The position numbers were made by a program, and so were the translations under genes. Positions 2,291 through 59,558 of a stretch of DNA of 64,000 nt are shown in pieces (position 1 is the stretch's first letter; the number at the start of each line of letters is the position of its first letter). Under the pieces are notes generated by a model. That model was not told the origin of the DNA, searched no databases, and worked only from the letters and a program-made list of their open reading frames with translations. The stretch comes from Eledone cirrhosa (Eukaryota). The DNA is taken from contig OZ024745.1 of NCBI GenBank assembly GCA_964016885.1, positions 27,590,001-27,654,000 on the forward strand, written 5' to 3'.

Positions 2291-3105
2291 CTCTTTGAGT
2301 CTCAGTCATTGATGTTATTTAACTGGAAAGTTTGTTGGAATGAATATCAAGCCACTACCTGCAGCCTCAGATATTCAGGACGTATCGGAGGGTTCTTGCT
2401 GTTCCCAGCAAGCATGCCTTTTGAAGTGTTCCAAAAAGCGGGGCGGGACCAATTTTCTTTAACCATCCTTGGAAACTCTTTGAGATAGTACCTAGTGCGC
2501 CTATGACAATCGGGACCACTTTGACTTCACGGCAGTTCCAAATCCTTTTTACCTCCCACTTTAAGTCCTGGTATCGGTTAATTTTCTCCCTCTCCTTCTC
2601 TTGCACTCTTGTGTCGAATGGGCAGGCTACATCCACAATCAGGCACGACCTTTTTTTCTTGTCTAAAACCACCAGGTCAGGTCTATTGTGTTCCAGTTTC
2701 TTGTCCGTCTGTATCCTAAAATCCCACAGCACCTTCACCTGATCGTTTTCTATCACCAACTCTGGCTTATGCTCATACCACTTCTCAGAATGTGGTAAAT
2801 TGTTTACTTTGCATAGGTGCCAGTGGATCACCCTGCCCATCACATCATGTCTCCAACCTTTATAGTGAGTCTGGGCTAGGTGTTTACACTCGGATATGAT
2901 GTGAGCCACAGTCTCCTCTCTCTCTCCACAGATCCTACACAGTGGGCTAGCCTCCTCCTTGTAGATATGGTGTTTCAGCCACCTCGGTTTGAGGGCCTGC
3001 TCTTGCGCAGCCATTAGTATTCCTTCTGTAGTCTTTTCAACCAGTTCCATGTCTGTGGATCTCTAAATTCAGTTTTCTCAAAGAAGGCACTATGAAGGGA
3101 TTTTT
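2290..3105 (-). mobile_element. Dong/R4-like non-LTR retrotransposon, 3' fragment with restriction-like endonuclease
   Basis: ORF 2367-3050 has CRIC-x7-H-x4-C, RHD, PDLVV...IVDVACP and EKINRY. A short 3' UTR ends in (TAA)n. 5' truncated. Confidence 0.88.
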
Positions 3106-3149
3106 CATTTATATTATGATTATTATTTAGATTGGTAATATTGTTAAAG

Positions 3150-3312
3150 CGCCGGAAAGCTTGCTTTGCGGAATATAGTTACGTCCCTTAATGATCTGAG
3201 TTCAAATACCGCCGAGGTTAGCTTGGTCGTTCATCCTTACGGGGTCGATAAAATAAAGTACCAGTAATGCACTGGGATAATTGCTGGCCTCGTGCTAAAA
3301 GTAGAAACAATT
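3150..3312 (+). mobile_element. tRNA-derived SINE (the dominant family in this window)
   Basis: B-box gagttcaaat, core tcatccttacggggtcgataaaataaagtaccag, tail aattgctggcct...agaaacaatta. Confidence 0.8.
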
Positions 3313-3751
3313 ATTCCACAGGTATTACAGTCATATGATGTGTTTCTTTTCTCTTTCTTCATATCAATGAGACAATCAATGTAAAGCAAGTGCCCGTAAA
3401 GTTGTTGTTGCTTTTAAGTGACAGGAACTTGGAGTCCACCCCTTCTTAGAGGTCTTACAGTTCTCCCCTTTACCATCTCGAGTATCTCTATAGCCCTGTA
3501 CACTTGTGTTAGTTAAATATGCAGGAATATTTTTAGTGAATGTCTACATCTCAAAGGTCAACTCCTAGCTAAGTGGAACCAATCAACAAATTCAACTGAT
3601 TTTCAACTACCTTCATATTGATTTATATATTTTCTTTTACCACACTTAATTTGGTAAACCTATACTACTCACCCTCTTCACATTTAACCTTTCATATTTT
3701 ACATACCACCACACATACACACACACGCATACAGACACATATGTCTGTGTG

Positions 3752-3828
<77 letters not shown>

Positions 3829-3949
3829 TATATATATATAGAGAGAGAGAGAGTGAGAGAGAGGGAAATTAATAAATCACATGAATACAAGAATTTCGCA
3901 CTTGAAGGAGTAACATTTATTACGTAACTGACACGTGTTGCTTTAATAT

Positions 3950-3989
<40 letters not shown>

Positions 3990-4006
3990 TATGTATGTAT
4001 TGTATG

Positions 4007-4082
<76 letters not shown>

Positions 4083-4085
<3 letters not shown>

Positions 4086-4140
4086 TCAGACAGTCTGCTT
4101 CTAGCGAACTATTTACATTATTTTGCCTTCATCAGGGAAT
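4083..4140 (-). ncRNA. Degenerate type I hammerhead ribozyme
   Basis: Minus strand: attcc CTGATGA aggc...gcta GAAG cagactg TC tgaat. GAAA is changed to GAAG. Adjacent to (TA)n. Confidence 0.5.
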
Positions 4141-4437
4141 CCCTGTGATTCTGTGTACAGCAGAATATTGTTATAGCAACGTCATATATATCATACTGAC
4201 TACAGAAAATACCTGAAACGATCTGACTAATTCCTATAAAATACATACGTTTGGTGAGGTACTTAAATGAGTAATACATATCTATACTAGAACATATCAT
4301 ATATGATTTGAAGATGTTAAGGGAGACAAAAGATAGATATAGCACAAGAATCGAAATTAATAGAAAGTCTCGGTGTCAGCTGATGATTAACAGTAATGAT
4401 TGGATGCATACAAACTTCCTGGCTAGTATATTGGCAT

Positions 4438-4545
4438 TTGTGAAGGCACATGGCTTAACAGGTAGAAGAGCTGGGTTACAATGAAGTTGTGAGTTCGAAT
4501 TCTAGGTCGGGCGATGCGTTATGTCCTTGAGCAAGATATTTTATT
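4438..4545 (+). mobile_element. tRNA-derived SINE head (second family)
   Basis: ttgtgaaggcacatggctta...gagttcgaat...gcgttatgtccttgagcaaga, homologous to 36601-36720. Confidence 0.65.
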
Positions 4546-5519
4546 TTATATTTTATTTTATTTATAACATCTGCTAGGAGATGTTTCCGGTAGATAGTAT
4601 TAGCAACTGGAAATATCAATGGGAACATTGTTTCCTTGGTTTGATCTGATGAGTATCACCTCACTCGGGCAGCGTATGAAATCTGAGAACTTATCGATAT
4701 TGGCCTCAATTATGATGTTAAAAAATACGTTCTGCTGTTGTGGACGGCTGAGTGCACCGTCTATCGGGATCCACCTGATGGAATGTCCATTCAATTATTT
4801 ATTTCCTTACCCCCAAATCTATAAACTGTTCTAAATTATGAACTGTATTGTTAAGTTAAGGTCCAGTAAATTAATTCGTTTCTTCAATTTCACGGATTTC
4901 TTTTAGAGCTTTTGTTATCGACAGAAATCCATTGTGGAATTATGTATGAAATGACATTGATAACGTGTTTTTGTTTGTCAATAGATCTTCGCTGTCATCT
5001 TCAAGTGAATATTGTTCAATTGAGTGGCATTTCCTTTTGCTTTTGAAAAACGTTTAAGAAATTGTGTTATAACGCTTGACACATAAAATCTTATTGTTAA
5101 GGAATTGGTTCTTATTTTAACTCTTAACATCCTGCAATTATTTAGCAGGAAATATCTAGAAACGGGTTTGTTAATTCAGTTATTCATTGTATCTTTTCCA
5201 GTGAACGGATCATTGTGAAAATTTGAAGTAAATTAAAGAAAATAATTTAATTCTCAATGCGACGCATTTATAGTGCTGTTATGTAATTTTGATCTTGAAA
5301 AATAAAAAGCAGCACTATAACTGCATCGCATTAAAAATTAAAGTCTTTACTTTAATTTACTTACTAATGTGGTTTCATGCGATATTGGGCGTTAAAAGTT
5401 AATTTCATGATGGTAGCTACATTACGAGAATACAAGTCCGCAACGTGGTGGAATTCAAATCCATATTTATATCTAAAACAATCAATTATTATAATATATG
5501 TAAAGGTTTTGCTACATGA

Positions 5520-15889: not shown

Positions 15890-16120
15890 AAAAGTAAAAG
15901 AAAAACAACACATTGAAACGATACAGTACAATGAAGATATATATTAGTTTAACGCTTGATATAGTAAGACAAGAGTTTCAACATTTCGGACGTTTGTCTT
16001 TCACCAAAAGATAGAATGAAAGATAAACGAAATAGAAAGATCGACGAAAATAAGGAGAAACCGGAAAAAACATTTTTTCAGAGAAAACAAGTGTTTATTC
16101 AGCAATTTGTTTAAAAATCG

Positions 16121-16161
<41 letters not shown>

Positions 16162-16166
<5 letters not shown>

Positions 16167-17488
16167 AAAATACTGCAGGTCGCACATGGAAACATGTAAT
16201 AAAATAAGTCCCTCATCAGTGATTTGCCGAAGATCATAGATATTTCATTGCATTAAAAATCATATATCTCACTTCGGTGCAATAATAACCAAAATAAGTT
16301 ATTAGGACAATTAAAACGCGTAAAGCGAGTGAGACAGGAGAACAACAGAAAAATTAGCATACCTTAGGGGAGAAACAAGCTTCAAAAATTATTCGTTTAG
16401 CATAAGCTAGGTGAATATATGAGAGCTGAGAGAATAGAACCAACACAAACGAAGGCCATTGAGCAGAGAGAGAAAAAATAGCGTTCGTGAGTGCAGGATG
16501 AAATGAAGAGAAGAGGGAGAAAAACAGTGAGTGAGTGAAAGTGTGAGGAAGAGTTAACGGACAAGACAGAGGGGGAGAAACAGAGAGAATGGGGGAACAG
16601 TAAGAGAGAGAGAAAAAAACACAGAATCGCAGTGGTAAATATATGTATTAAAATATAGAGAAAAATACTGCAGGTCGCACATGGAAACATGTAATAAAAT
16701 AAGTCCCTCAACGCTATTTTTTCTCTCTCTGCTCAATGGCCTTCGTTTGTGTTGGTTCTATTCTCTCAGCTCTCATATATTCACCTAGCTTATGCTAAAC
16801 GAATAATTTTTGAAGCTTGTTTCTCCCCTAAGGTATGCTAATTTTTCTGTTGTTCTCCTGTCTCACTCGCTTTACGCGTTTTAATTGTCCTAATAACTTA
16901 TTTTGGTTATTATTGCACCGAAGTGAGATATATGATTTTTAATGCAATGAAATATCTATGATCTTCGGCAAATCACTGATGAGGGACTTATTTTATTACA
17001 TGTTTCCATGTGCGACCTGCAGTATTTTTCTCTATATTTTAATACATATATTTACCACTGCGATTCTGTGTTTTTTTCTCGCTCTCTTACTGTTCCCCCA
17101 TTCTCTCTGTTTCTCCCCCTTTGTCTTGTCCGTTAACTCTTCCTCACACTTTCACTCACTCACTGTTTTTCTCCCTCTTCTCTTCATTTCATCCTGCACT
17201 CACGAACGCTATTTTTTCTCTCTCTGCTCAATGACCTTCGTTTGTGTTGGTTCTATTCTCTCAGCTCTCATATATTCACCTAGCTTATGCTAAACGAATA
17301 ATTTTTGAAGCTTGTTTCTCCCCTAAGGTATGCTAATTTTTCTGTTGTTCTCCTGTCTCAGTCGCTTTACGCGTTTTAATTGTCCTAATAACTTATTTTG
17401 GTTATTATTGCACCGAAGTGAGATATATGATTTTTAATGCAATGAAATATCTATGATCTTCGGCAAATCACTGATGAGGGACTTATTT

Positions 17489-17493
<5 letters not shown>
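16162..17493. repeat. 495-bp non-coding unit in tandem and inverted array inside (TA)n
   Basis: About 1.1 units on the minus strand (16162-16710) then about 1.6 units on the plus strand (16710-17493). CTGATGA at 16976 and 17471 gives a period of 495. Copies are nearly identical. Confidence 0.9.
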
Positions 17494-17580
<87 letters not shown>

Positions 17581-17677
17581 GTAAAAAACTGCGAGGTTTT
17601 ATTCGTAGTAAGTAGAGCACTCGGCCCACAGGACGAGTTCGGCATAGAGTTAGTTCCACAAGTTTGCTAATTTGTTG

Positions 17678-20202: not shown

Positions 20203-22243
20203 ACCACTTAGCATTGATCTCTGAGCTCATTCATTTTGCCCAAAATTATTCTTTGACTTACTAAAGTTAAGTTCTTTTCCGTTCTTAATTTTGTTTCCAC
20301 CTTAATCGAAATTTAATGATATAAATTTAAAGTCTAAAGAAAGAAATTTTTCTCGTTTTAATTTCTAGTGTATTTAACTTTTCTTGTAGATATGGTTTCG
20401 TATGTGTGCATTTGGTAGGATAATATTTTCAATTTGAAGAGTATGTGGTGACGTTTTTAATAAAAATGTAACATGTCGTTCACACAGATGACTGGTGAGA
20501 GACGGAACCTAAATGCAACCCAAATTAAATCAAATCCAGCCACAAACCCAAGCAAACAAAATATACACCTACAATCAACCCAAACACCAGATGCAGGCTA
20601 CTAAAGAAAAAAATTAAGCTACGTACGACCTTCTAACTATATTCCCATCTCCCATTAAACTAACCACGGATCCGCAGAAATTATTGGTAAGAAGATGACA
20701 GATATCATCAGGCTGTAGCCGTCATATTACATAGTTTCTATATAATAGGCTGCAGCGACTACGGATCCAGTATGCAATAAGTATGGAACACACATAATCA
20801 GTACTGTCCTTAGGAGCTACCACATATTCAAGCCGCTTACAAACCAGACACTGTAATATTCAGTTCATGACATCCTTGTACCTGTTTACCAGTCTATAAA
20901 TCTATGCCAAGCTACATTAGCATGTGGTTCCGTTAGCCATTACACACATAACACCAACCACGTATGCCATTTATCGAACTCAGCCTAAGTTAAACTACTC
21001 TCTGCACATTCATATAAACATGAACCACGAAAAGCGCTAAGCATCTTGATCGACTAACAAAGCTAATAACTGAAACAAATAGAATTAACATTTCTATGAA
21101 AAACCCTAAACTATCAAACTACCACCCAACGTTCTCGACTAATGGCCATTTGCTACTTAACTGCAAGCAAGCCCAAAATAGCTTAGAACCTTCTTAAAAC
21201 CTTCCTTTTCATAGCAATGTCACGGCAAAAGCGTTGTATCCATAATTTCCTATCGAATCCTTGTCTTCCTATATGTGTTGATCGTCTCCTAACTGTGTTC
21301 GTAAAAACGTTAACCTGGTTACTTATTTTACCATACCTTAATACTCGACTAGAAAACAGGTTGTAATCCATTAAAACGAGTATACAGATGGGAGAAAAAG
21401 ATACAAGCTACCTAAACACTAAGATACGTAGTCTTATTGTAAACACTTGCTATTCCAACTCATCATTCCTTTCGATGGTAACGTCTAAATAATTGTCCTT
21501 ATTTACATCGCAACCATTCCACTTCTCCTCCAAACTATCCGGATAAATTTTATGCAATTAGCCGTCAAAGTGACCATAGTTCAGAACAAAATATAATCTG
21601 TCTCCACAGCCCCCACACAACAGCTTATTCAGGCCTATCCTCCTTAGTTTCCTCAACCCTGCTAGAAAGACAAACTCCCAAGTGGATAAATATAAATCGG
21701 CTTTAATTACATGTCTGACTTATTTGAACAGATTACCCGCAAACGTAATATATGTATTATTTACTATAAATCCTACTGCTCGTTTGAGCTTAACCTTTGT
21801 CCAACAAGTGTACCCGTTATACCCTATTCAAGAAATGAAGTCTTTCCTGTTCCTAAAAGAAACATACTTATATTTTTCCGAAAACCTATTGCCCTACCAA
21901 CCCCGTCCTAGTTTACAAACTAGTATATAAAGTATAAACATTATACGCGTGCATAGTTTTAACTACCTCTATTCTATTCAATTTAACCGAAAACTCAGCA
22001 TACTATCCTATACTCCAACTCATATTCAGACCACTATCATAAAGAACCACATCAAAATACTTAACAAAGGCCTCATTAACCACTTCTAAAGTCTCATCAA
22101 CCAAAATGTATGTCTAGAGTCTATGTGTAGTCTGTAAAACAATTTTGGCATTATACTGTTAATAAGAAGATGCTGTTCTCTTTTTAAGATAATTTGAACC
22201 AATAATGAAGCTGAAAACTAGTTTCTGGTTTCTAGAAAACATT

Positions 22244-36496: not shown

Positions 36497-36598
36497 GTAC
36501 TAGCTACGGCAGTACATATTCTAAAATTGGAACGATACAAAGATTAGCATGGCCCCTGTGCAATGATGACACGCAAATTCGTGAAGCGTTCCATATTT
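36497..36598 (+). pseudogene. U6: Full-length U6 snRNA retropseudogene
   Basis: Matches U6 (…ctaaaattggaacgatac…agattagcatggcccctg…gatgacacgcaaattcgtgaagcgttccatattt). A 3-nt deletion breaks the ACAGAGA box. The upstream sequence is (TA)n with no PSE. Confidence 0.9.
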
Positions 36599-36600
36599 CT

Positions 36601-38527: not shown

Positions 38528-40310
38528 CTAGCAGTTTAGCCAGGTGTTGCTCGGGTTTGTTCATTTGCTATGAAAAGTTACATGCAGGTAAACGTGGCTT
38601 GAAAGCGAATACGCTGTTCAACTGCTTTATGCCTTAAATAAAGCAGTTGAACAGGTTATTAAAAGTTACGAACCAATTAGCATCAATGATGGGTTAATAA
38701 TCTTTCAATAGCGAATTTAGCAGACCAAAGTTGCAAGATGGTGTCCCTGATGCCACTGGGTGTCACATCTGTCTGCCATGGGTGACCCTACCAGGAAATA
38801 GTTTTCCAGACGGCATAGCTCCAACACCTCCAACACCTGCACCAACATCTATAGCACCTCTTTGTAGACGATATTGCGTGTCATCCCTTCAGGAGTGTAA
38901 GCAAAAAGTGCATTCCTGCTCCCTACGTGGGAACAGGCAAAATAAAGTTGACCATGGAAGAAGCATGGCTCCCCCAAATGGATGCCCGCCACCGACAATG
39001 TTTGCCCTTGTGACTTGTTAATGGACATGGCAAAACATGGTCTCATTGGGAATTGGGATCGCCGGAAATCGAACGGGATATCTGACGCCGAGGGGAAAAG
39101 GTTCATCCTTGGAATGAAAACATTCTCCCCTCTCCCGCACCCCGTTACAATGGTGGCCTCAATCAAGTGGGGCGTCATTTACTTGACGACCATGCGAGTA
39201 CCGTTGCACTGCTTTGGTGGGCGCAAGTTCCTTATTAGCATAATGAGACAGCCAATCCTAAGCTTAAGAATGTGAGGTGGGAGCCCTGGAGGCTCAAGGG
39301 AATTTAATAACTCAACCGGATAATTAAAGATATCGTCGGGGTCTGACGTCCGATCGATAGATTTGAAGATGTGCTCTTTACCGGGAATTTTCTCAATCAG
39401 CTGATCGTTAATAAAATTAACCATGGCATTTTTCGGAGCAAGGATGGCTCTTTCACTGAGCCAATCGAAGTTTTTAAAGTTAGATGAGGCATTAGGAAAA
39501 ACTGCCTCCCAAAGGTCAGAAGGGCTGCTCATAATGTTGCACAGGGAGTCGATTGCTATGCCGTCCTTGTCATCCGCAGGGACCTTGCCCTCACCAAGTG
39601 CTAAAATGTTCTGAGCAAATGCTGCAGACATGTTGTCACCATGCAAATGAGCACGCATATTTGTGCTCAGGTACAAAATCTTCACCTGGGGCCACAATGT
39701 GGACGACTTAAAGCAGGCACGCACTTCATTAGCTCTTGTCCCTTTGGGGATGAGAGACAGCGTTTGCCGAAAATCCCCTGATAGCAGAAGGGTTACGCCA
39801 CCCATAGGAGACGTAGAATCCCTAATGTCTTTCAGGGTTCTGTCCAAGGCCTCAAACGCACCCTTGTGTGCCATTGTGCACTAATCCCAAACAATGAGGC
39901 AACATTTTTTTAGAACCAGAGCTTCGTGTGAGCTCTTGCTGATATTGCATGTTGGTGTCTCAGTTTTTACTAAATCCAAGGGGAGTTTAAAGGTTGAATG
40001 TGCTGTCCTGCCTCTCGGCAGCAAAGTAGCAGCGATCCCGGACGATGCAACGGCCAACGCAATATTTTTCTCCTGACGAATCTTAGCGGGAATCAATTTT
40101 GTTACAAAAGTTTTTTCCGGAACCCCTAGGAGTATCAAGAAAGTAAATACCCCCAGTCTGATTTTGAACCGCTCATTTTCCTCTAAGTATTGGGAAAGAG
40201 ATTCGATGTCATATGCTGTTTCCCGCAACAAATCCGGGGCCAACGTGTTAGCTTCATCTGTGACGGTTGACAGCAAGCCATACGTCGCCAACTCACTCCC
40301 ACCCATGTCG
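38528..40310 (-). mobile_element. Helitron RepHel remnant (PIF1-family helicase), pseudogenised
   Basis: AVASSGIAATLL..GRTAHSTFKLP, GDFRQTL, RAILAPKN, MLIRNL...CNGTR, RSQFP...FAMSINKSQGQTL and HGQLY. Stops at 39881 and 39179. 3' hairpin plus CTAG at 38528. Confidence 0.92.
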
Positions 40311-40811
<501 letters not shown>

Positions 40812-47022: not shown

Positions 47023-47103
<81 letters not shown>

Positions 47104-47272
47104 TAGAGATAGATAGATATTAGTATTGGTGCTCTGAAATAGCGATGTATACATGAATGTATGTATAGTATATTTGGCAATGTGCCGCATGTTTAATTAG
47201 AAACATTTACAAGACCATACGCTATCGGTTATAAAGTAGTGACATAGTCACTTAATTCTTTTCGGCGAAAGA

Positions 47273-47335
47273 AGGGAGAGAAGCTGACAGTCTGTTTCAC
47301 GCTGGTTGGCGTTCATCAGAGCCACGTACTCCCCT
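47273..47335 (-). ncRNA. Type I hammerhead ribozyme (retrozyme copy 1)
   Basis: gct CTGATGA acgc-caacca-gcgt GAAA ca-gac-tg TC agc, with an extended stem I agggga/tccct. Confidence 0.9.
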
Positions 47336-47757
47336 GCTTCCGCCGAAAATGATAGAAGCTGAATTCTTATAGAATTCTAGTAATAATCAGGAGCTGATTA
47401 TACAGAGCGATTGCCGGTCCAGCAAAAATTAGGTATTAGGATTGGTGCTCTGCAATAGCGATGTATACATGAATGTATGTATAGTATATTTGGTAATATA
47501 CTGTATGTTTAATTAAAACCATCTAGAAGACCATACGCTATCAGTTTTAAAGTAGTGATTATGTCACTTAATGGTTTTAATTAAACATACAGTATATTGC
47601 CAAATATACTATACATACATTCATGTACACATCGCTATTTCAGAGCACCAATCCTAATACCTAATTTTTGCTGGAGCGGCAATCGCTCTGTATAATCAGT
47701 TCCTGATTATTACTGGAATTCTATAAGAATCCAACTTCTATAATTTTCGGCGGAAGC

Positions 47758-47820
47758 AGGGGAGTACGTGGCTCTGATGAACGCCAACCAGCGTGAAACA
47801 TACTGTCAGCTTCTCTCCCT
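47758..47820 (+). ncRNA. Type I hammerhead ribozyme (retrozyme copy 2)
   Basis: gct CTGATGA acgc-caacca-gcgt GAAA ca-tac-tg TC agc. GUC site at ~47805-47807. Confidence 0.9.
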
Positions 47821-47999
47821 TCTTTCGCCGAAAAGAAGTAAGTGACATAGTCGCTACTTTAAAACTGATAGCGTAAGGTCTTCTAAATGTCGTTAATTAA
47901 ACATACGGTATATTTCCAAATATACTATACATACATATATATATATATGAATATATATATGAATATGTATATGAATATAAATATGAATATATATATATA

Positions 48000-49264: not shown

Positions 49265-51700
49265 AGATCAAAAGATGGTTAAAGGAGTTCCATGTATTTT
49301 ATTATGCGCATTTCAAAAACAAACATCATCATGCAATAATATTTGTGTTTTCATCAGATAAAACAGGAGGACATGATATGAAGGCTAAAAAGCACTTGTG
49401 GATAGTGCAGTTTTAAATCAACATATGAGAAGTAATTTTAGATTGATGTGTGATATTGGGAAAAATATTTTTTTAGAGAGGGGGTGTGGAAAGGATGAAA
49501 AAAGGGGAGGAGATGCGAGTGAAGGTGGAGAGGGAGAGATGGGTGATAGAGAGAAAGAGATAGTTTTTATAACTGAGAAAAGATATATTGTTTTACATAG
49601 AGAGGTTGAAAACCGTTGGGAGATAATGTATAAATTAAAAGAATTTGAAAATTAACGAAGGGAAAAATATGTACGAAGAAGGAGAGGGAGTTAATATGTA
49701 TTGAGATTAAAAAGTTTGATGATAGAGAGAATAGAATAATGAATTGCAGATGAATATTCTAACGTCAAAAAAATGTGTGTATATTTACAAGTATTATGGA
49801 AATTTGAAAATTAGCGAAGCGAAAAAATTATTAAGGTTTGTGTATTGAAGGATTTGAGAAAAATAATGTGAAGTTAAGGTTTGTATATTGAAGGAATTGA
49901 TAATATGTGCGAAGAAAGAGTTAATATGTATTAAGAGTGAGTTAGCTGGTGGGGAGAAAAAAATAATAAATTAAGGATGAATAATCTGGCGTCAAAACAA
50001 ATGTATATGTTACGAAGGATTTTACAAGGTGAAGATAGAGTGAGGGTAATGAGTAAACAAGTATTATAGAGTGTATAATACCCTTTGAAGTAAGGTAGGA
50101 AGATGGGTATATTTTAAAAGAGGTGTATGTATATGTGCCTTTGAGAAAAGATTCTAAATTGATAAAGAATTGAATATTAGCTGTATACTTTGTGAAATGT
50201 CTTATGGAATTTATGCAAGCAGATAGAAAACAAATCTGTACGTCTATTTATTATAGAATCTAGATTAGAGATAATGGTAAATTTTTCATTTAGGCAGAGA
50301 TTACAGATTTTAGATAGAGAGCTGTTCAAGAAACCTTCTTCCAAAAGATGGTATATTTAATGTTTTTGTCTTTCAAGGACCATATGAGTTCTGAGAGAGC
50401 CGTGTTGGTTCTTTTAAGTTTGTATTTAAAAGATGAATGATGATTATAGAGACGAGCTTTAAAAGAGGTGGAAGTGGAGCCAAAATAGGTGAAGGAATTG
50501 GTGCTAGTTATAACTTTACATTCATAAATTAAGTTTTTATCAAGACAATGGTTGTTGAGAGGACATTTATTTTTAATAGGGCAGTTGCAATTAGAGAGAT
50601 TATTAATGAGTGACCTAGTGTTATCTATAGAAGGAATTGGATTGGAGAAGTTGTTTGCGATAGGAATAATAGTTTCTTGATTTAGAGTTGGATTATAAAC
50701 ATTTAGCGAAGTTGTGTTTGACGTTGTATTTGGGTTTACAGAAATTAGCCTAGGGTTTACAATGACGTCGGGAGTACTATTACTGTTATGAAATTCAGTG
50801 TTGGAAGGAAGAGATTTAGTATTTAGTATTTTATTGTTGTGTTTAGAGATAATGTTGGAAATATTGGAGGATGTAGAATAAGAAAATTTTATGGTGTGTT
50901 TGTTAAATATTTTACTATAGATATGTGAGGGAGGGAAGCATTTATTTAAGGCACTAAAGAATAATTTAGGAATATTGTTATTAATAGAGATGGAGAAAGG
51001 AGCATTATACCAGATTATGTTTTTGTATCTAGGTCTTTTATTAAAGTTATTGGAATGATCATGATTAATTATTCTACTGTAAGTTCTTCTAGAATTTGTT
51101 TCTTTACTATATTTGATTTTATCAGGATAGCCGGCTTTAGAAAGTGCGTTATTATAGTAATTGGCGTTAGCATCAAAGATGTTTTTATTAGAAGATATGT
51201 TAGATATTCTTTTTCCAATATTACTAACTATAGCATTCTTGATATTGGTAGGATAGTTAGATTTAAAGTTAACATAATTTAGGTTCTCATTATTTTTATG
51301 GTAAGGGTAATATAGGCCAGTGTCAAGATTAAGAGATACATCCAAGAAATTAGCTAGTTTGATACTGTTATCAAATTCAATTTTTAGGTTATGTTGGTTA
51401 AAGAGATTACGTATATTGTTCTTAATAATATTAAGGTTAACTATATTGCAATTTAAGATAGTAAAGAGTCCATCGTCACGATAAATTCCACCGCGAAGTT
51501 GAGGAATTTTCTGACTCAAAGAGTTCAAAATAAAGATACCAATTAAATCAGTCAATTGGGATGAATCGGATGCTCCCATTGTGATGTCGAAGTTGTTAGA
51601 GGTATCGGCTCTGGTCCAATATTCGTTGTTGAACTCTAGGATGGTTTTACGTGCGGTGAGGATGATGTGAAGTTCATCTGTGGTGATGTCAGAATCTGCA
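49265..51700 (-). mobile_element. Penelope-like element, Naiad-type, 5'-truncated (RT C-terminal half, thumb, GIY-YIG, 3' UTR)
   Basis: FDITMGASDSSQ, IYRDDGL, FLDVSL, CNCPIKNKCPLNNHC and LIYEC...YFGST...FKARLYNH. After a frameshift near 50325 the reading continues ICNLCLNEK...INRRTD...CLH to a stop at 50177. Confidence 0.88.
49293..49366 (-). ncRNA. Minimal hammerhead in the 3' UTR of the Naiad-like PLE
   Basis: tgttttat CTGATGA aaacacaaa...tttgttttt GAAA tgcgca TA ataaaataca. Same strand as the ORF, with a palindromic stem III. Confidence 0.8.
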
Positions 51701-51733
51701 TTGCTTTATTGTACTACAATAAAACTCACCTCC

Positions 51734-52034: not shown

Positions 52035-52930
52035 AGTTTTAATATAGAAGAGCTTCTACAGGACTAGAACTGTTTCATTCGTGTGAAAACATCAGGAAGC
52101 TGGCTGTCCAAGTAAATGGTAGTATTTATGTCTTTCCTTATCTGGTGGTAGGAGAGGGTGGGGATTGGGATGAGTGTAGGTCATCGGTTGAAGGATTTAA
52201 AGAAAGGGGATTCATTAAAAGCTAATTCTTAAAAGCTATAATATTAACAAAGGCAGAAAGAATACTGTAAACAAATTCAAAAATTGGAATACCAATCCTT
52301 GTTTATCACTTAAAGTAACAATGGCTGTAAGACAGGTGTCTACAGGATGGGTGGGGTTCAATGGTTTAAAGAAAAGGGAAATTCTTTAGAAGCTAATTCT
52401 TTAAGGCTAAAATGAGGGTGACAAAGGCAGAAAAGTTTCCATCAACAGATTCAAGTGTTGGGGTGAACCCCATATAGTGAAGTTTCTCTTAATATATATT
52501 CCAGGTGTCGACAAAAATATTCACACACGCGCCCACTCACACACGTACTCACACTGTAGACACCTGTCTTGCAGCCATTGTTACTTTAAGTGATAAACAA
52601 GGATTGGTATTCACACTTTGAACTTGTTTACAGTATTCTTTCTGCCTTTGTTAATATTATAGCTTTTAAGAATTAGCTTTTAATGAATCCCCTTTCTTTA
52701 AATCCTTCAACCAATGACCTACACCCATCCCAATCCCCACCCTCTCCTACCACCAGATAAGGAAAGACATAAATACTACCATTTACTTGGACAGCCAGCT
52801 TCCTGATGATTTCTCACGAATGAAACAGTTCTAGTCTTGTAGAAGCTCTTCTATATTAAAACTGTTATACTCTGCTATGTATTGAGTACCTTACTTACTG
52901 TGGTTACCTCCGATTCAACCCGGAATAACT
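52035..52930. mobile_element. Family A HHR element with ~310-bp inverted arms
   Basis: Arms 52035-52345 and 52554-52863, 3' tail to 52930. Flanked by (TA)n. The left-arm HHR (52051-52101, minus) has CTGATGT. Confidence 0.85.
52797..52847 (+). ncRNA. Type I hammerhead ribozyme (family A)
   Basis: agcttc CTGATGA tttc-tcac-gaat GAAA cag-ttctagtc-ttg TA gaagct. Confidence 0.85.
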
Positions 52931-53002
52931 TATATATATATATATATATAAGAGAGTATTGAAGTTTGCTTGAAGCATTGTGGAATAATAGATAAATATC
53001 TT

Positions 53003-53703
53003 TAAGTCGTTTGGAAGCCTAGACAATGCAAATGGGTAAATCTCCGGGTAACAAGATCCGGTGGTGGAGAGAGAGATGTAAGTGGGTGTACGTTGAGATG
53101 CATGGTGTGTATAAGACGTGTAGAAGAATGAAGGAAAGAGTATAAAGGATAAAATAAAAATAAGAACACGAGAGAGAGTTACCTTGGGAGAGATTTAATT
53201 GTCCCTATATATTTCGGATTCACATCCATCAACTGGGGGTTTTTTCCGGGGTGGGGGAAAGGTTGTCTGTCGGAAAGGTGCGAAACGCGTCCTCCGCTGT
53301 TTGTTGTTTTGAATATCGGGTGGGTATAGAATTTCCAATAAAACCGTTTCAGTGGCTGAATAACTATTAATCACACACACACACAAACTCATATATTCAA
53401 AACAACAAACAGCGGAGGACGCGTTTCGCACCTTTCCGACAGACAACCTTTCCCCCACCCCGGAAAAAACCCCAGTTGATGGATGTGAATCCGAAATATA
53501 TAGGGACAATTAAATCTCTCCCAAGGTAACTCTCTCTCGTGTTCTTATTTTTATTTTAACCTTTATACTCTTTCCTTCATTCTTCTACACGTCTTATACA
53601 CACCACGCATCTCAACGTACACCCACTTACATCTCTCTCTTCACCACCGGATCTTGTTACCTGGAAATTTAGCCATTTGCATTGTCTAGGCTTCCAAACG
53701 ACT

Positions 53704-53705
<2 letters not shown>
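53003..53705. mobile_element. Fold-back element with 313-bp inverted arms, probably PLE-derived
   Basis: Arms 53003-53316 and 53393-53705. Contains GAAACGCGTC and a degenerate HHR-like motif at 53470-53505. Flanked by (TA)n. Confidence 0.75.
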
Positions 53706-53753
<48 letters not shown>

Positions 53754-57362: not shown

Positions 57363-57366
<4 letters not shown>

Positions 57367-59550
57367 TTTTGCTAGGTTTTTGATATGAAACCGTGTGTCG
57401 AAACAAATATTGTTATACTTGGGGAGGGTCATATTTGTGTAATATTGCCAGAATTAATAACAGAACACACTCACTGTTTCGTTGGTTTTCGCTTTTCGCT
57501 TCTGTGTCTTTTATATCGGTAATCTAATTTATTCGGTCCTCAATGTTGCCATTGACTGACCAACGGTAAAAAATAATACAGATACAATATAGACACAAAC
57601 ACATATATATAGTTTATCAAAGTTCTTTCGTTGCACATCTGCAACATCGTCAGTGGTGCTATTGTTTCCTCCCGTTGCATTGTATTTTCTACGCCATCTT
57701 TATTTAGTCTGTTTATATATTTATTTATTAGTTTATTTTATTTTGTCTTTTTTGCGCATGCGTTTGCGTGTGTGTATAGTGTTTTGTTTGATGTGTGTTC
57801 GTGATTGGGTGACTGTGTATTGGTTAATGTATTCTATCTTTACTAGTGTGTGTTTATATGCGTTTGTTGTTATTGTGCTTGTGTATGTATTTATTTATTT
57901 ATTTATCTATTTATTTATTTATACTTCTCTTAGGTCAGTGTTGTTTGTTTGGGTGTTGTTGTTATTCCATTCATTCTTTCTGTTTAGCCTTGGCCTTCTA
58001 AGTTCTATTTCACTGGCCTCTCTGATTTGCCTATCTGCTGGATCATTTCTATGTTTAGATATTATTCTAATTTCTATGTTGTCTATGTTACCGTCGTGTT
58101 GTTGTCTGGCATGTTCGTATAGTACTGAACCGTTTTTTCGTCCTTTTAGTTCCCCCCCCCCAGTGTTGGTCTATCCTCTCACTTATGCTACGAGCTGTCT
58201 CGTCTATGTATGTTGTTGTCATTGTTCTGCAAGTACCCTCTGTACATCTTATGCTATAGACTACGTTTCTAGTTTTACAGTTTATCCGGGGTTTACCTTA
58301 CATATGATACATTTCCTATTAGTACAGTGGGTTTTCTTAAAAGGGTAGGTTTTGCTGATCAGGGATTTTATGGTGGTTCCTGGCTTTTCTACCACCTTAA
58401 TCTTTAAGTGGGTCTTTCTCAGGGCCTTTCTACACTGGTTAGCTAATTTTCCTCCAGGGGTAGCGTCCACAAACATGACACTCTGGTATCTCTGGTTGTC
58501 GTACCATGAGGTGGCTTTCCATATTTTATGTCTAGCCCTATCTAAGCTATTCCATGGCTCCTTCGTATACTCTGACTCTGTCTCTTTGGTTGTAGCCAGA
58601 GAACTGCATGCGGTTGATGAAGTGTTGGATGTGTCTTTCCATTTCTGTTGGGTCGCACATGCGGGACACATTCTTGATCACTCGTACCAAATCTGCGATA
58701 AGAATATTAAACTTAGCGCTACTGGACATTGCTGAGTTTTTGAGTATCAGGTATTTGGAGGCCATGGGTTTAGCATAGTGTGAGTGGAGAATTTGGGCTC
58801 TCTCGTCTATAGTGTTAATCCAGACTTCCGTGTCTAATACAGGTAGTCTATTGTTAGGGTGTTTGGAAGGGTAGTCGATAGTTACAGTTATACTCTGGTG
58901 TATGGAATTAGCTATCTGCTGGATGCTTTCCATTGTGCTACGTTCTAAATCAAACTTGTTAGTGCTCTCTAGTGGGGATGTTCTTATAACTATATTGATA
59001 TCGTCTACGTAACGAGAGTACATGAGAGTACATAAGAGAAGTATAAATAAATAAATAGATAAATAAATAAATAAATACATACACAAGCACAATAACAACA
59101 AACACATATAAACACACACTAGTAAAGATAGAATACATTAACCAATACACAGTCACCCAATCACGAACACACATCAAACAAAACACTATACACACACGCA
59201 AACGCATGCGCAATAAAGACAAAATAAAATAAACTAATAAATAAATATATAAACAGACTAAATAAAGATGGCGTAGAAAATACAATGCAACGGGAGGAAA
59301 CAATAGCACCACTGACGATGTTGCAGATGTGGAACGAAAGAACTTTGATAAACTATATATATGTGTTTGTGTCTATATTGTATCTGTATTATTTTTTACC
59401 GTTGGTCAGTCAATGGCAACATTGAGGACCGAATAAATTAGATTACCGATACAAAAGACACAGAAGCGAAAAGCGAAAACCAACGAAACAGTGAGTGTGT
59501 TCTGTTATTAATTCTGGCAATATTACACAAATATGACCCTCCCTAAGTAT

Positions 59551-59558
<8 letters not shown>
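57363..59558 (-). mobile_element. Penelope-like element, 5'-truncated, with a 526-bp inverted terminal repeat
   Basis: Minus strand YSRYVDDI, LPVLD, HYAKPMAS and FVDATPGG, then a frameshifted GIY-YIG (VVYSIRC...YIDETARS..ER..QH...RQIREA...LNRKNEW). Arms 57407-57932 and 59033-59558. (TA)n on both sides. Confidence 0.9.
57609..57662 (-). ncRNA. Hammerhead in the PLE terminal repeat (mirror copy at 59303-59356, plus)
   Basis: atag-cac-ca CTGACGA t-gttgca-gatg-tgcaac GAAA gaac TT tg-ataaa-ctat. Stems I and III are weak. Confidence 0.6.

Follow-up and report, generated by a model that had tools for sequence, protein, structure and literature searches.

A predicted non-circularly permuted hammerhead fold in a retrozyme-like tandem and inverted insertion of Eledone cirrhosa, with counterparts behind Naiad reverse transcriptase genes

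Rearranged hammerhead ribozymes have been analyzed in terms of three blocks, S (the cleavage site), G (GAAA) and C (CUGAnGA), and the orders SGC and CSG cleave (Eckert et al. 2023, PMC10085705). The accessible part of that article takes CUGAnGA to be inseparable from its stem II strand and on this basis arrives at six possible orders for the hammerhead, and the rearranged hammerheads it reports were found outside known genomes. Hammerhead variants with additional helices are mentioned in one sentence in the available part of PMC13725137, and a word search of the available text of PMC10162972 returned no description of such variants. Our literature search, which mostly covered sources other than subscription journals, found no description of a permuted fold with a split block C.

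Among Penelope-like elements (PLEs), Naiads have (TA)n as their target, and their insertions are partial tandems next to which lies an inverted copy truncated at its 5' end (Craig et al. 2021, PMC8557442). In the accessible article and supplement they are reported to be without a canonical hammerhead, and eight of them, one an octopus Naiad, are tagged 'HHR_half_core'. These half cores are described as CUGAnGA with GAAA on either side at a longer distance, in the 3' UTR, and that part of the source offers no fold for them; the absence of hammerheads from Naiads was taken as a hint of mere parasitism by hammerheads. Animal non-LTR retrozymes have been proposed to be non-autonomous PLE derivatives (bioRxiv 10.64898/2026.07.22.740005). 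With regard to PLE insertion itself, internal initiation by reverse transcriptase (RT) has been shown for a PLE other than the one examined here, insertion in vitro had no need of hammerhead (HHR) cleavage, and, in the accessible part of the source, no reads start or end at the HHR cut site (PMC11167929).

Here we followed up a sequence-only reading of a 495-bp unit in a 64-kb stretch of Eledone cirrhosa DNA (the window), which had seen only half a hammerhead in it and had proposed either a non-canonical or permuted ribozyme or a ribozyme-less circular passenger. The tandem and inverted layout with its (TA)n flanks (Table 1) is real, and the arms are nearly identical, with four differences from the unit in all. 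The left (TA)n run itself covers 16124-16156. In each arm, CTGATGA lies on the strand that has its 3' end on the outer side, an orientation of the core strand that is shared with the 47-kb and 57-59-kb elements of the window. As had been noted, the inversion junction falls inside CTGATGA and the right end lies beside it: the left, minus-strand arm, which has one complete ribozyme fold inside, starts at unit position 271, within CUGAUGA (the letter equivalent to 16980), and the right end is 16 nt beyond the last A of the CTGATGA at 17471-17477. The arms end 66 nt (right) and 101 nt (left) beyond the predicted cut, not at the cut. The absence of an ORF was likewise borne out, since the circular unit stays free of stops for at most 116 codons in sense, in pyrimidine-rich sequence, and 39 in antisense, and neither strand holds a credible ORF or coding remnant. 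Folding both strands as circles, a check that had been proposed, gave only modest structure (z -2.1 sense and -1.7 antisense, 40 shuffles), and a viroid-like rod is absent from the circular minimum free energy (MFE) fold. No further copy of the unit was found elsewhere in the window.

Table 1. Positions of the insertion, of its predicted ribozyme parts and of a separate Naiad remnant in the window
Feature	Position	Strand	Remarks
Whole insertion	16162..17493	.	Two back-to-back arms, 3' ends pointing outward into (TA)n
Right arm	16710..17493	+	784 nt = 1.58 units; 2 mismatches vs unit
Right arm, content	16933-17427 (monomer)	+	2 complete ribozyme folds and 1 full monomer between predicted cuts
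Left (inverted) arm	16710->16162	-	549 nt = 1.11 units; 2 mismatches vs unit
495-nt unit	16710..17204	+	ORF-free; unit as analyzed
Left target	16124..16161	.	(TA)n and short (GA)n expansion
Right target	17492..17577	.	(TA)n
Permuted hammerhead, copy 1	16887..16987	+	Whole motif; closed by helix II', 16887-16891 with 16983-16987
Permuted hammerhead, copy 2	17382..17482	+	Identical; arm stops 11 nt later
Permuted hammerhead, copy 3	16208..16308	-	Identical; arm stops 46 nt later
Hairpin P1	16892..16911	+	7 bp; second extra arm of four-way junction; linker-free on both sides
Stem II	16912..16948	+	6 bp; 16912-16917 with 16943-16948
Stem I-II interaction helix	16918..16968	+	6 bp; 16918-16923 with 16963-16968; next to stem I
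Stem III	16926..16957	+	6 bp; 16926-16931 with 16952-16957, including U16.1-A15.1
Predicted cleavage triplet AUA	16930..16932	+	By analogy to hammerhead core
Predicted cuts	after 16932; 17427; 16263		Copy 1; copy 2; minus-strand copy
Stem I	16933..16975	+	6 bp; 16933-16938 with 16970-16975
Core GAAA (G12-A15.1)	16949..16952	+	23 nt upstream of CUGAUGA
Core CUGAUGA (C3-A9)	16976..16982	+	
Decayed Naiad-type RT	21222..22107	-	Stops and frameshifts; separate older insertion
Same-order hammerhead core	20697..20808	-	In 3' UTR of decayed Naiad

The likeness that had been seen to the element near 47 kb holds for the layout and not for the sequence, which is alike only in the microsatellite flanks. 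The 47-kb element (47090-47948) is an older back-to-back insertion of PLE type with a period of ~316 nt, an arm identity of 86-90% and, in both arms, a hammerhead core of the ordinary type I. Three more back-to-back insertions lie in (TA)n at 52035-52863, 52988-53720 and 57364-59558. Type I-like cores occur in those at 52 and 57 kb, the latter with an RT fragment on its core-bearing strand; in the 53-kb insertion, GAAA and a palindrome lie on the strand that faces inward, and CUGAnGA is absent from their vicinity. By eye, a 459-codon open frame at 50326-51705 (-) is like the Hydra-clade PLE RT-EN in the accessible PMC8557442 supplement. Pfam gave no hit for this frame and no useful family for three ORF pieces of the window. 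A U6 snRNA gene or pseudogene (90.6 bits) at 36497-36600 (+) has three letters missing from its ACAGAGA box. The frames at 38849-40408 (-) are Pif1-like helicase frames by motif, which we take to be probably a Helitron remnant.

The core letters of a hammerhead (CUGAnGA, GAAA and NUH) are complete in the window copy, and all stems are present as well, in a non-canonical order. The supposed half is thereby supported as a complete predicted hammerhead fold, non-circularly permuted and pseudoknotted. The order is II'(5'), P1, stem II 5' strand, interaction strand, stem III/UH/stem I, stem II 3' strand, GAAA, stem III, interaction strand, stem I, CUGAUGA and II'(3'), and the six helices are fully paired in all three copies. 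The earlier failure to close a canonical stem II was correct for the letters directly after CUGAUGA, with which the strand before GAAA (16943-48) forms 1 bp, but that strand forms 6 bp with 16912-17, upstream of the cleavage site. Two extra helices, II' and P1, interrupt the backbone between A9 and G10.1, giving a four-way junction with the core, II', P1 and stem II as its arms. Since this junction replaces the A9-G10.1 link, stem II should still be able to stack on the G12-A9 pair. Viewed as a circle, the predicted fold corresponds to that of SGC/CSG opened between A9 and position 10.1. Of the two proposals made earlier, the permuted ribozyme is the one borne out by this predicted fold; the ribozyme-less passenger is unsupported. 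The first pair of stem II is A-U in the window copy versus G-C (G10.1-C11.1) in nine of nine Naiad loci described below. G10.1-C11.1 is the usual first stem II pair in classic hammerheads, and its replacement by A-U suggests that the family of the window copy may cut slowly.

Chance pairing was assessed by shuffling with GAAA and CTGATGA held fixed: none of 20,000 trials produced stems I, III and II with 6 bp or more, and seven produced such stems I and III alone. Likewise, none of the 246 cores in 12 block-shuffled windows gave a split match. The nested part of the fold (II', P1, interaction helix and stem III) appears in the MFE structure with pair probabilities of 0.82-0.87, and stems I and II, which are pseudoknots, have near-zero probability in the nested ensemble (0.01-0.02), as expected. 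The Rfam check that had been recommended was run and gave no hammerhead match in the window, none in 16100-17600 up to E 10, and none in 20 of the 36 Naiad loci up to E 0.05, including all nine that bear the motif.

The unit is not unique, as parts of it are present in 15 of 20 listed sequencing runs. Reads were compared in detail for runs X1, X2, X5 and X18, which carry three organism labels; each contains at most half of the unit's words and probably comes from other individuals or species. In X1 (781 records) the depth is 150,000-300,000 over 16863-16998 versus 2,600-4,800 at the unit ends. A single 489-nt contig of X2 spans the unit across the tandem joint (17204->16710) with 11 differences, and the joint is also found in X5 (one contig) and in X18, where the 36 reads have one shared start and so possibly represent one molecule. 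No strand-changing joint at the inversion junction of this locus was found among the matches listed for these four runs. That other unit copies also end in a UA-rich stretch just behind CUGAUGA is suggested by loose (TA)n ends at 17051 and by reads ending at 16992.

Forty read variants were listed, 66 further ones being outside the list. None of the 40 touches the core letters. Thirteen fall within 16880-16995, ten of them in helices, and nine of these ten keep the pairing, against an expectation of 38 in 216 for a random single change. Four of them make up two compensatory pairs, 16922/16964 in the interaction helix (~90% of reads each) and 16928/16955 in stem III; the reads are unphased, and co-occurrence is deduced from the frequencies. 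With A in place of T at 16957, the outermost pair of stem III is lost unless the partner letter changes too. The two local hairpins of the sequence-only reading exist as sequence but, judged by read variants and Naiad homologues, are not the conserved fold. The first needs U16.1 at 16957, which is A in 240 of 272 and in 99 of 426 reads of run X18; in the opposite-strand GAAA hairpin, an inserted letter behind 17004 breaks GAAA in 219 of 399 reads.

A core of the same order was also found in the window in the 3' UTR of a decayed Naiad, ~500 nt behind the RT match. It retains stem I (8/9) and stem III (6/6), its stem II and P1 are degraded or differently spaced, and 58 nt separate the stem II strand from GAAA. 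Anchoring failed for its stem II, P1 and II', and it was counted as partial and kept outside the ten-motif statistics. The decayed RT, with X at its stops, gave no match in a word-based protein search, but phmmer matched 35 proteins. DKA and CxC motifs were present in the four proteins inspected, and an N-terminal GIY-YIG domain scored above the Pfam cut-off in two of seven scanned, which identifies these relatives as Naiads. A search by alignment of eight RT proteins yielded 36 loci, 33 from metagenomes and three from the genome collection, with no relatives in viral_contigs; an exact pattern of P1 loop, GAAA and CTGATGA with gaps had 0 matches in genome_contigs and viral_contigs.

The split motif occurs in nine loci (L001, L002, L003, L004, L006, L010, L014, L016 and L024), on the sense strand and 90-548 nt behind the stop codon. 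The 3' flank is 250 nt or longer in 26 Naiad loci, of which these are nine; the other 17 are without the motif. Near-duplicates exist among these negatives, and no two of the nine positives are 80% alike over 300 nt. Applied to the 36 loci, a strict descriptor matched nine of 19 cores from 100 nt before the end of the RT match onward. It matched none of the 31 cores on the ORF side (up to the match end), none of the 23 antisense cores and none of the 69 cores in shuffles. Weaker descriptor matches within ORFs (L012, L013, L034) and at window position 1839 failed the strict descriptor or the spacing and were attributed to chance. The best BLAST match of the unit to the Naiad loci is a 52-nt AT-rich stretch of L017 (E 0.006). 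This likeness is unconvincing, and the link to a Naiad helper therefore rests on the motif and the layout.

Several other features of these loci were observed. By eye, L012:4330-4420 follows the split order from a hairpin through stem II and GAAA to stem III and has no CUGAnGA before its (TA)n end; it may be decayed, truncated or a core variant. The hammerhead-free loci L008, L011, L019, L022, L026 and L034 have GC-rich, structured-looking stretches in their 3' flanks, possibly other ribozymes, which are common to L022 and L026 and to L011 and L034; Rfam gave no match in those scanned (all but L034). Some Naiad ORFs run on into a ubiquitin C-terminal hydrolase domain (Pfam UCH, P0012, E 2e-24), and in L027, L031 and L032 long, open-looking sequence follows the RT match by eye. 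Naiad-type RTs on contigs of bacterial or archaeal MAGs (L034, L035, L036) most likely reflect eukaryotic contamination.

Covariation was examined in ten motifs, the window copy and the nine Naiad loci. The core letters CUGAnGA, GAAA and U16.1-A15.1 are invariant in all ten, and H17 is never G. With anchored columns, 49 of 50 cells are paired in stem I, 40 of 40 in stem III and 50 of 50 in stem II formed with the upstream strand, and swapping strands among sequences gave means of 36, 29 and 32, respectively, the observed values never being reached in 5000 trials. Stem II formed with the strand after the core has 17 of 50 cells paired versus a shuffled mean of 19.8, and directly after CUGAnGA it reaches 0-1 bp in every motif; the stem II that abuts GAAA has 6 bp in nine motifs and 5 bp in L024. 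Because stems I, II and III had served to select the nine loci, their paired totals are in part a product of that selection, and more weight than on the totals falls on the variety of pair types, which is seen in the upstream pairing of stem II. The nine loci are also related by descent, which inflates covariation scores. Two parts of the fold played no role in the selection. The interaction helix has 6-11 bp in all ten motifs and was equaled in 0-7 of 2000 local shuffles for seven of them and in 140-159 of 2000 for three, including the window copy. P1 with II' is present in nine of ten, at a level that 0-55 of 2000 shuffles attained; in L006, P1 is longer and was found only when the search range was widened. 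A MAFFT alignment, which misaligned P1 and the 5' strands of stem II (both were scored by anchoring, with no covariance model), showed two-sided changes in eight of nine pairs of stems I and III, a value equaled by 0 of 500 shuffles and far above that of slid controls. Together with the compensatory changes in reads, the covariation that had been recommended as a check was thus found.

We also read by eye the 3' ends of 15 of the 54 published Naiad consensi (accessible PMC8557442 supplement). The split form can be placed in Naiad_Obim, Naiad_Ovul and Naiad_Amil, with differing stem letters, and in Esco with an imperfect stem II. In Naiad_Ovul, GAAA stands 23 nt upstream of CTGATGA and the P1 loop is as in the window unit; together with a SINE motif, this likeness points to an octopus as the probable host. 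A complete CSG type with interaction helix can be placed in Parc, 3_Nbra, Hpol and Smim, and tentatively a plain SGC with a long insert in Ppla; no hammerhead was placed in Omin, 3_Dst, CGi, Mgal, Adux and 1_Pfla. Seven of the eight 'half cores' are among those read, as four CSG, two split and one unplaced. By eye, the four CSG forms with that tag belong to nematodes and a spider; in the accessible part of PMC10085705, CSG otherwise comprises two metagenome sequences. Of six motifs from the unit searched in the available PMC8557442 supplement, five had 0 hits and one had four, two of which, those shown, lie in unrelated GC-rich sequence.

Based on the layout, the helices, the covariation and the position of the fold behind Naiad RT genes, we consider it quite likely that the insertion is a non-autonomous Penelope-like element, a retrozyme-like passenger of Naiads with a rearranged hammerhead. 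The structure supports well the view that the predicted permuted fold is a new hammerhead-class variant within such a passenger. We lean, with less assurance, toward the broader proposal that Naiads of several animal phyla carry active non-circularly permuted hammerheads, including a seventh topology that falls outside the six orders held possible, and that this topology serves the 495-nt unit as a retrozyme with circular RNA. Read-through RNA would cut itself after AUA at 16932 and 17427 to give a 495-nt monomer, and this may be ligated into a circle, which would re-form the whole ribozyme. A Naiad EN-RT acting in trans would nick (TA)n DNA, reverse transcription would begin 11-46 nt beyond the ribozyme, where the sequence is rich in UA, and extend over more than one unit, and a second priming on the other strand would produce the inverted arm. 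The over-unit arms could equally derive from tandem read-through RNA. The start of the left arm inside CUGAUGA, 48 nt from the cut, may, on a speculative view, mark stalling of the RT at the entry to the fold.

The unit could instead be a mere 3' pseudo-LTR of an autonomous Naiad that arose from tandem read-through RNA, with no independent family and no circle. Naiads normally insert as truncated partial tandems accompanied by an inverted copy (accessible part of PMC8557442), and many reads match the unit only in part and have different letters upstream (loose ends before 16757 and 16848). Nevertheless, head-to-tail joints of the unit occur both in the window and in three runs (X2, X5 and X18), and the unit holds no coding remnant, whereas an autonomous element would have an ORF upstream of the repeat; we judge this alternative unlikely. 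It concerns the element only and is compatible with the ribozyme model. The ribozyme result is also independent of the inversion junction, which matters for the suggestion that faulty assembly of a repeat created the tandem and the inversion. That suggestion could draw on the missing junction among the read matches listed and on the trouble that such structures cause in short-read assemblies (accessible part of PMC8557442), but it is very improbable in view of the four differences between the arms, the tandem joint in other runs and the presence of at least four other back-to-back insertions in the window.

Another account accepts that the hammerhead-derived fold is real and holds that it does not cut, or that cutting was lost in this family, and that it acts as a structured signal for the Naiad RT in recognition, internal priming or 3' protection. 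The A-U pair that closes stem II in the window copy would suit this account, as would the arms, which end 11 nt (right) and 46 nt (left) beyond the motif rather than at the cut, and the in vitro PLE insertion that is independent of HHR cleavage (PMC11167929, accessible part). It is, however, hard to reconcile with catalytic letters (CUGAnGA, GAAA, U16.1 and an H17 that is never G) that are kept in all ten motifs as the stems vary freely and are spared by every listed read variant, or with the cleavage of the SGC and CSG forms (PMC10085705, accessible part), and a non-cutting fold seems quite improbable. A further reading takes the hammerhead to be a minimal, dimer-type one formed locally, from GAAA, a 1-bp stem III, UA, the short hairpin pointed out earlier as stem I, and CUGAUGA, without stem II, or else assigns a second half-core to the opposite strand. 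PLE hammerheads of minimal type that cleave as dimers are reportedly known, and the local hairpin and the opposite-strand GAAA with its palindrome are both present. Yet the direct stem II has only 1 bp, A is frequent at 16957, where U would be required, the GAAA of the opposite strand is frequently broken, and the Naiad homologues keep the long-range helices and not the local hairpins, all of which makes this reading hardly credible.

The retrozyme-like Naiad passenger with a permuted hammerhead, which we prefer, has several implications. Its motif separates CUGAnGA from the stem II strand, against the assumption made in the accessible part of PMC10085705 and with the support of covariation, and rearranged hammerheads are thereby placed in animal genomes. 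Descriptors of type I and Rfam would overlook an entire class of retrozymes. If the motif cuts, the hammerhead-as-parasite argument in the accessible part of PMC8557442 weakens, and a role of self-cleavage in Penelope-like retrotransposition becomes testable in the Naiad clade; active permuted hammerheads, if confirmed, would explain why Naiads were reported to lack canonical ones. The prediction is exact, namely a cut after A16932 and six helices to disrupt and restore.

Compared with known elements, the insertion resembles Naiads (Craig et al. 2021, PMC8557442, accessible part) in its (TA)n target and in its partial tandem with an inverted 5'-truncated copy, but the unit, unlike autonomous Naiads, has no N-terminal GIY-YIG, CxC, DKA or RT ORF. 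It shares protein-free tandem units with one hammerhead each with animal non-LTR retrozymes as presented in the available part of bioRxiv 10.64898/2026.07.22.740005; those, however, are defined by type I hammerheads, whereas the hammerhead predicted here is permuted. Like the type I hammerheads of PLE pseudo-LTRs (Hydra table of PMC8557442, accessible part, and the 47-kb element), the motif lies on the sense strand near the 3' end, and the insertion ends a few tens of bases past it. In contrast, those hammerheads are nested three-way junctions in the order CUGAnGA, GAAA, site, and the predicted fold is not a circularly permuted nested three-way junction as in Rfam types I, II and III, with no Rfam match. 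From type SGC as given in the accessible part of PMC10085705 it differs in its split block C, with the stem II strand at the 5' end and not directly after CUGAnGA, and in its occurrence in animal retrotransposons. It agrees with type SGC in the order site, GAAA, CUGAnGA, and with both SGC (HRIMA-1) and CSG in its pseudoknotted stems, its full set of core letters, the short linker from the stem I 3' strand to the stem II strand and the Watson-Crick helix that links the far ends of stems I and II.
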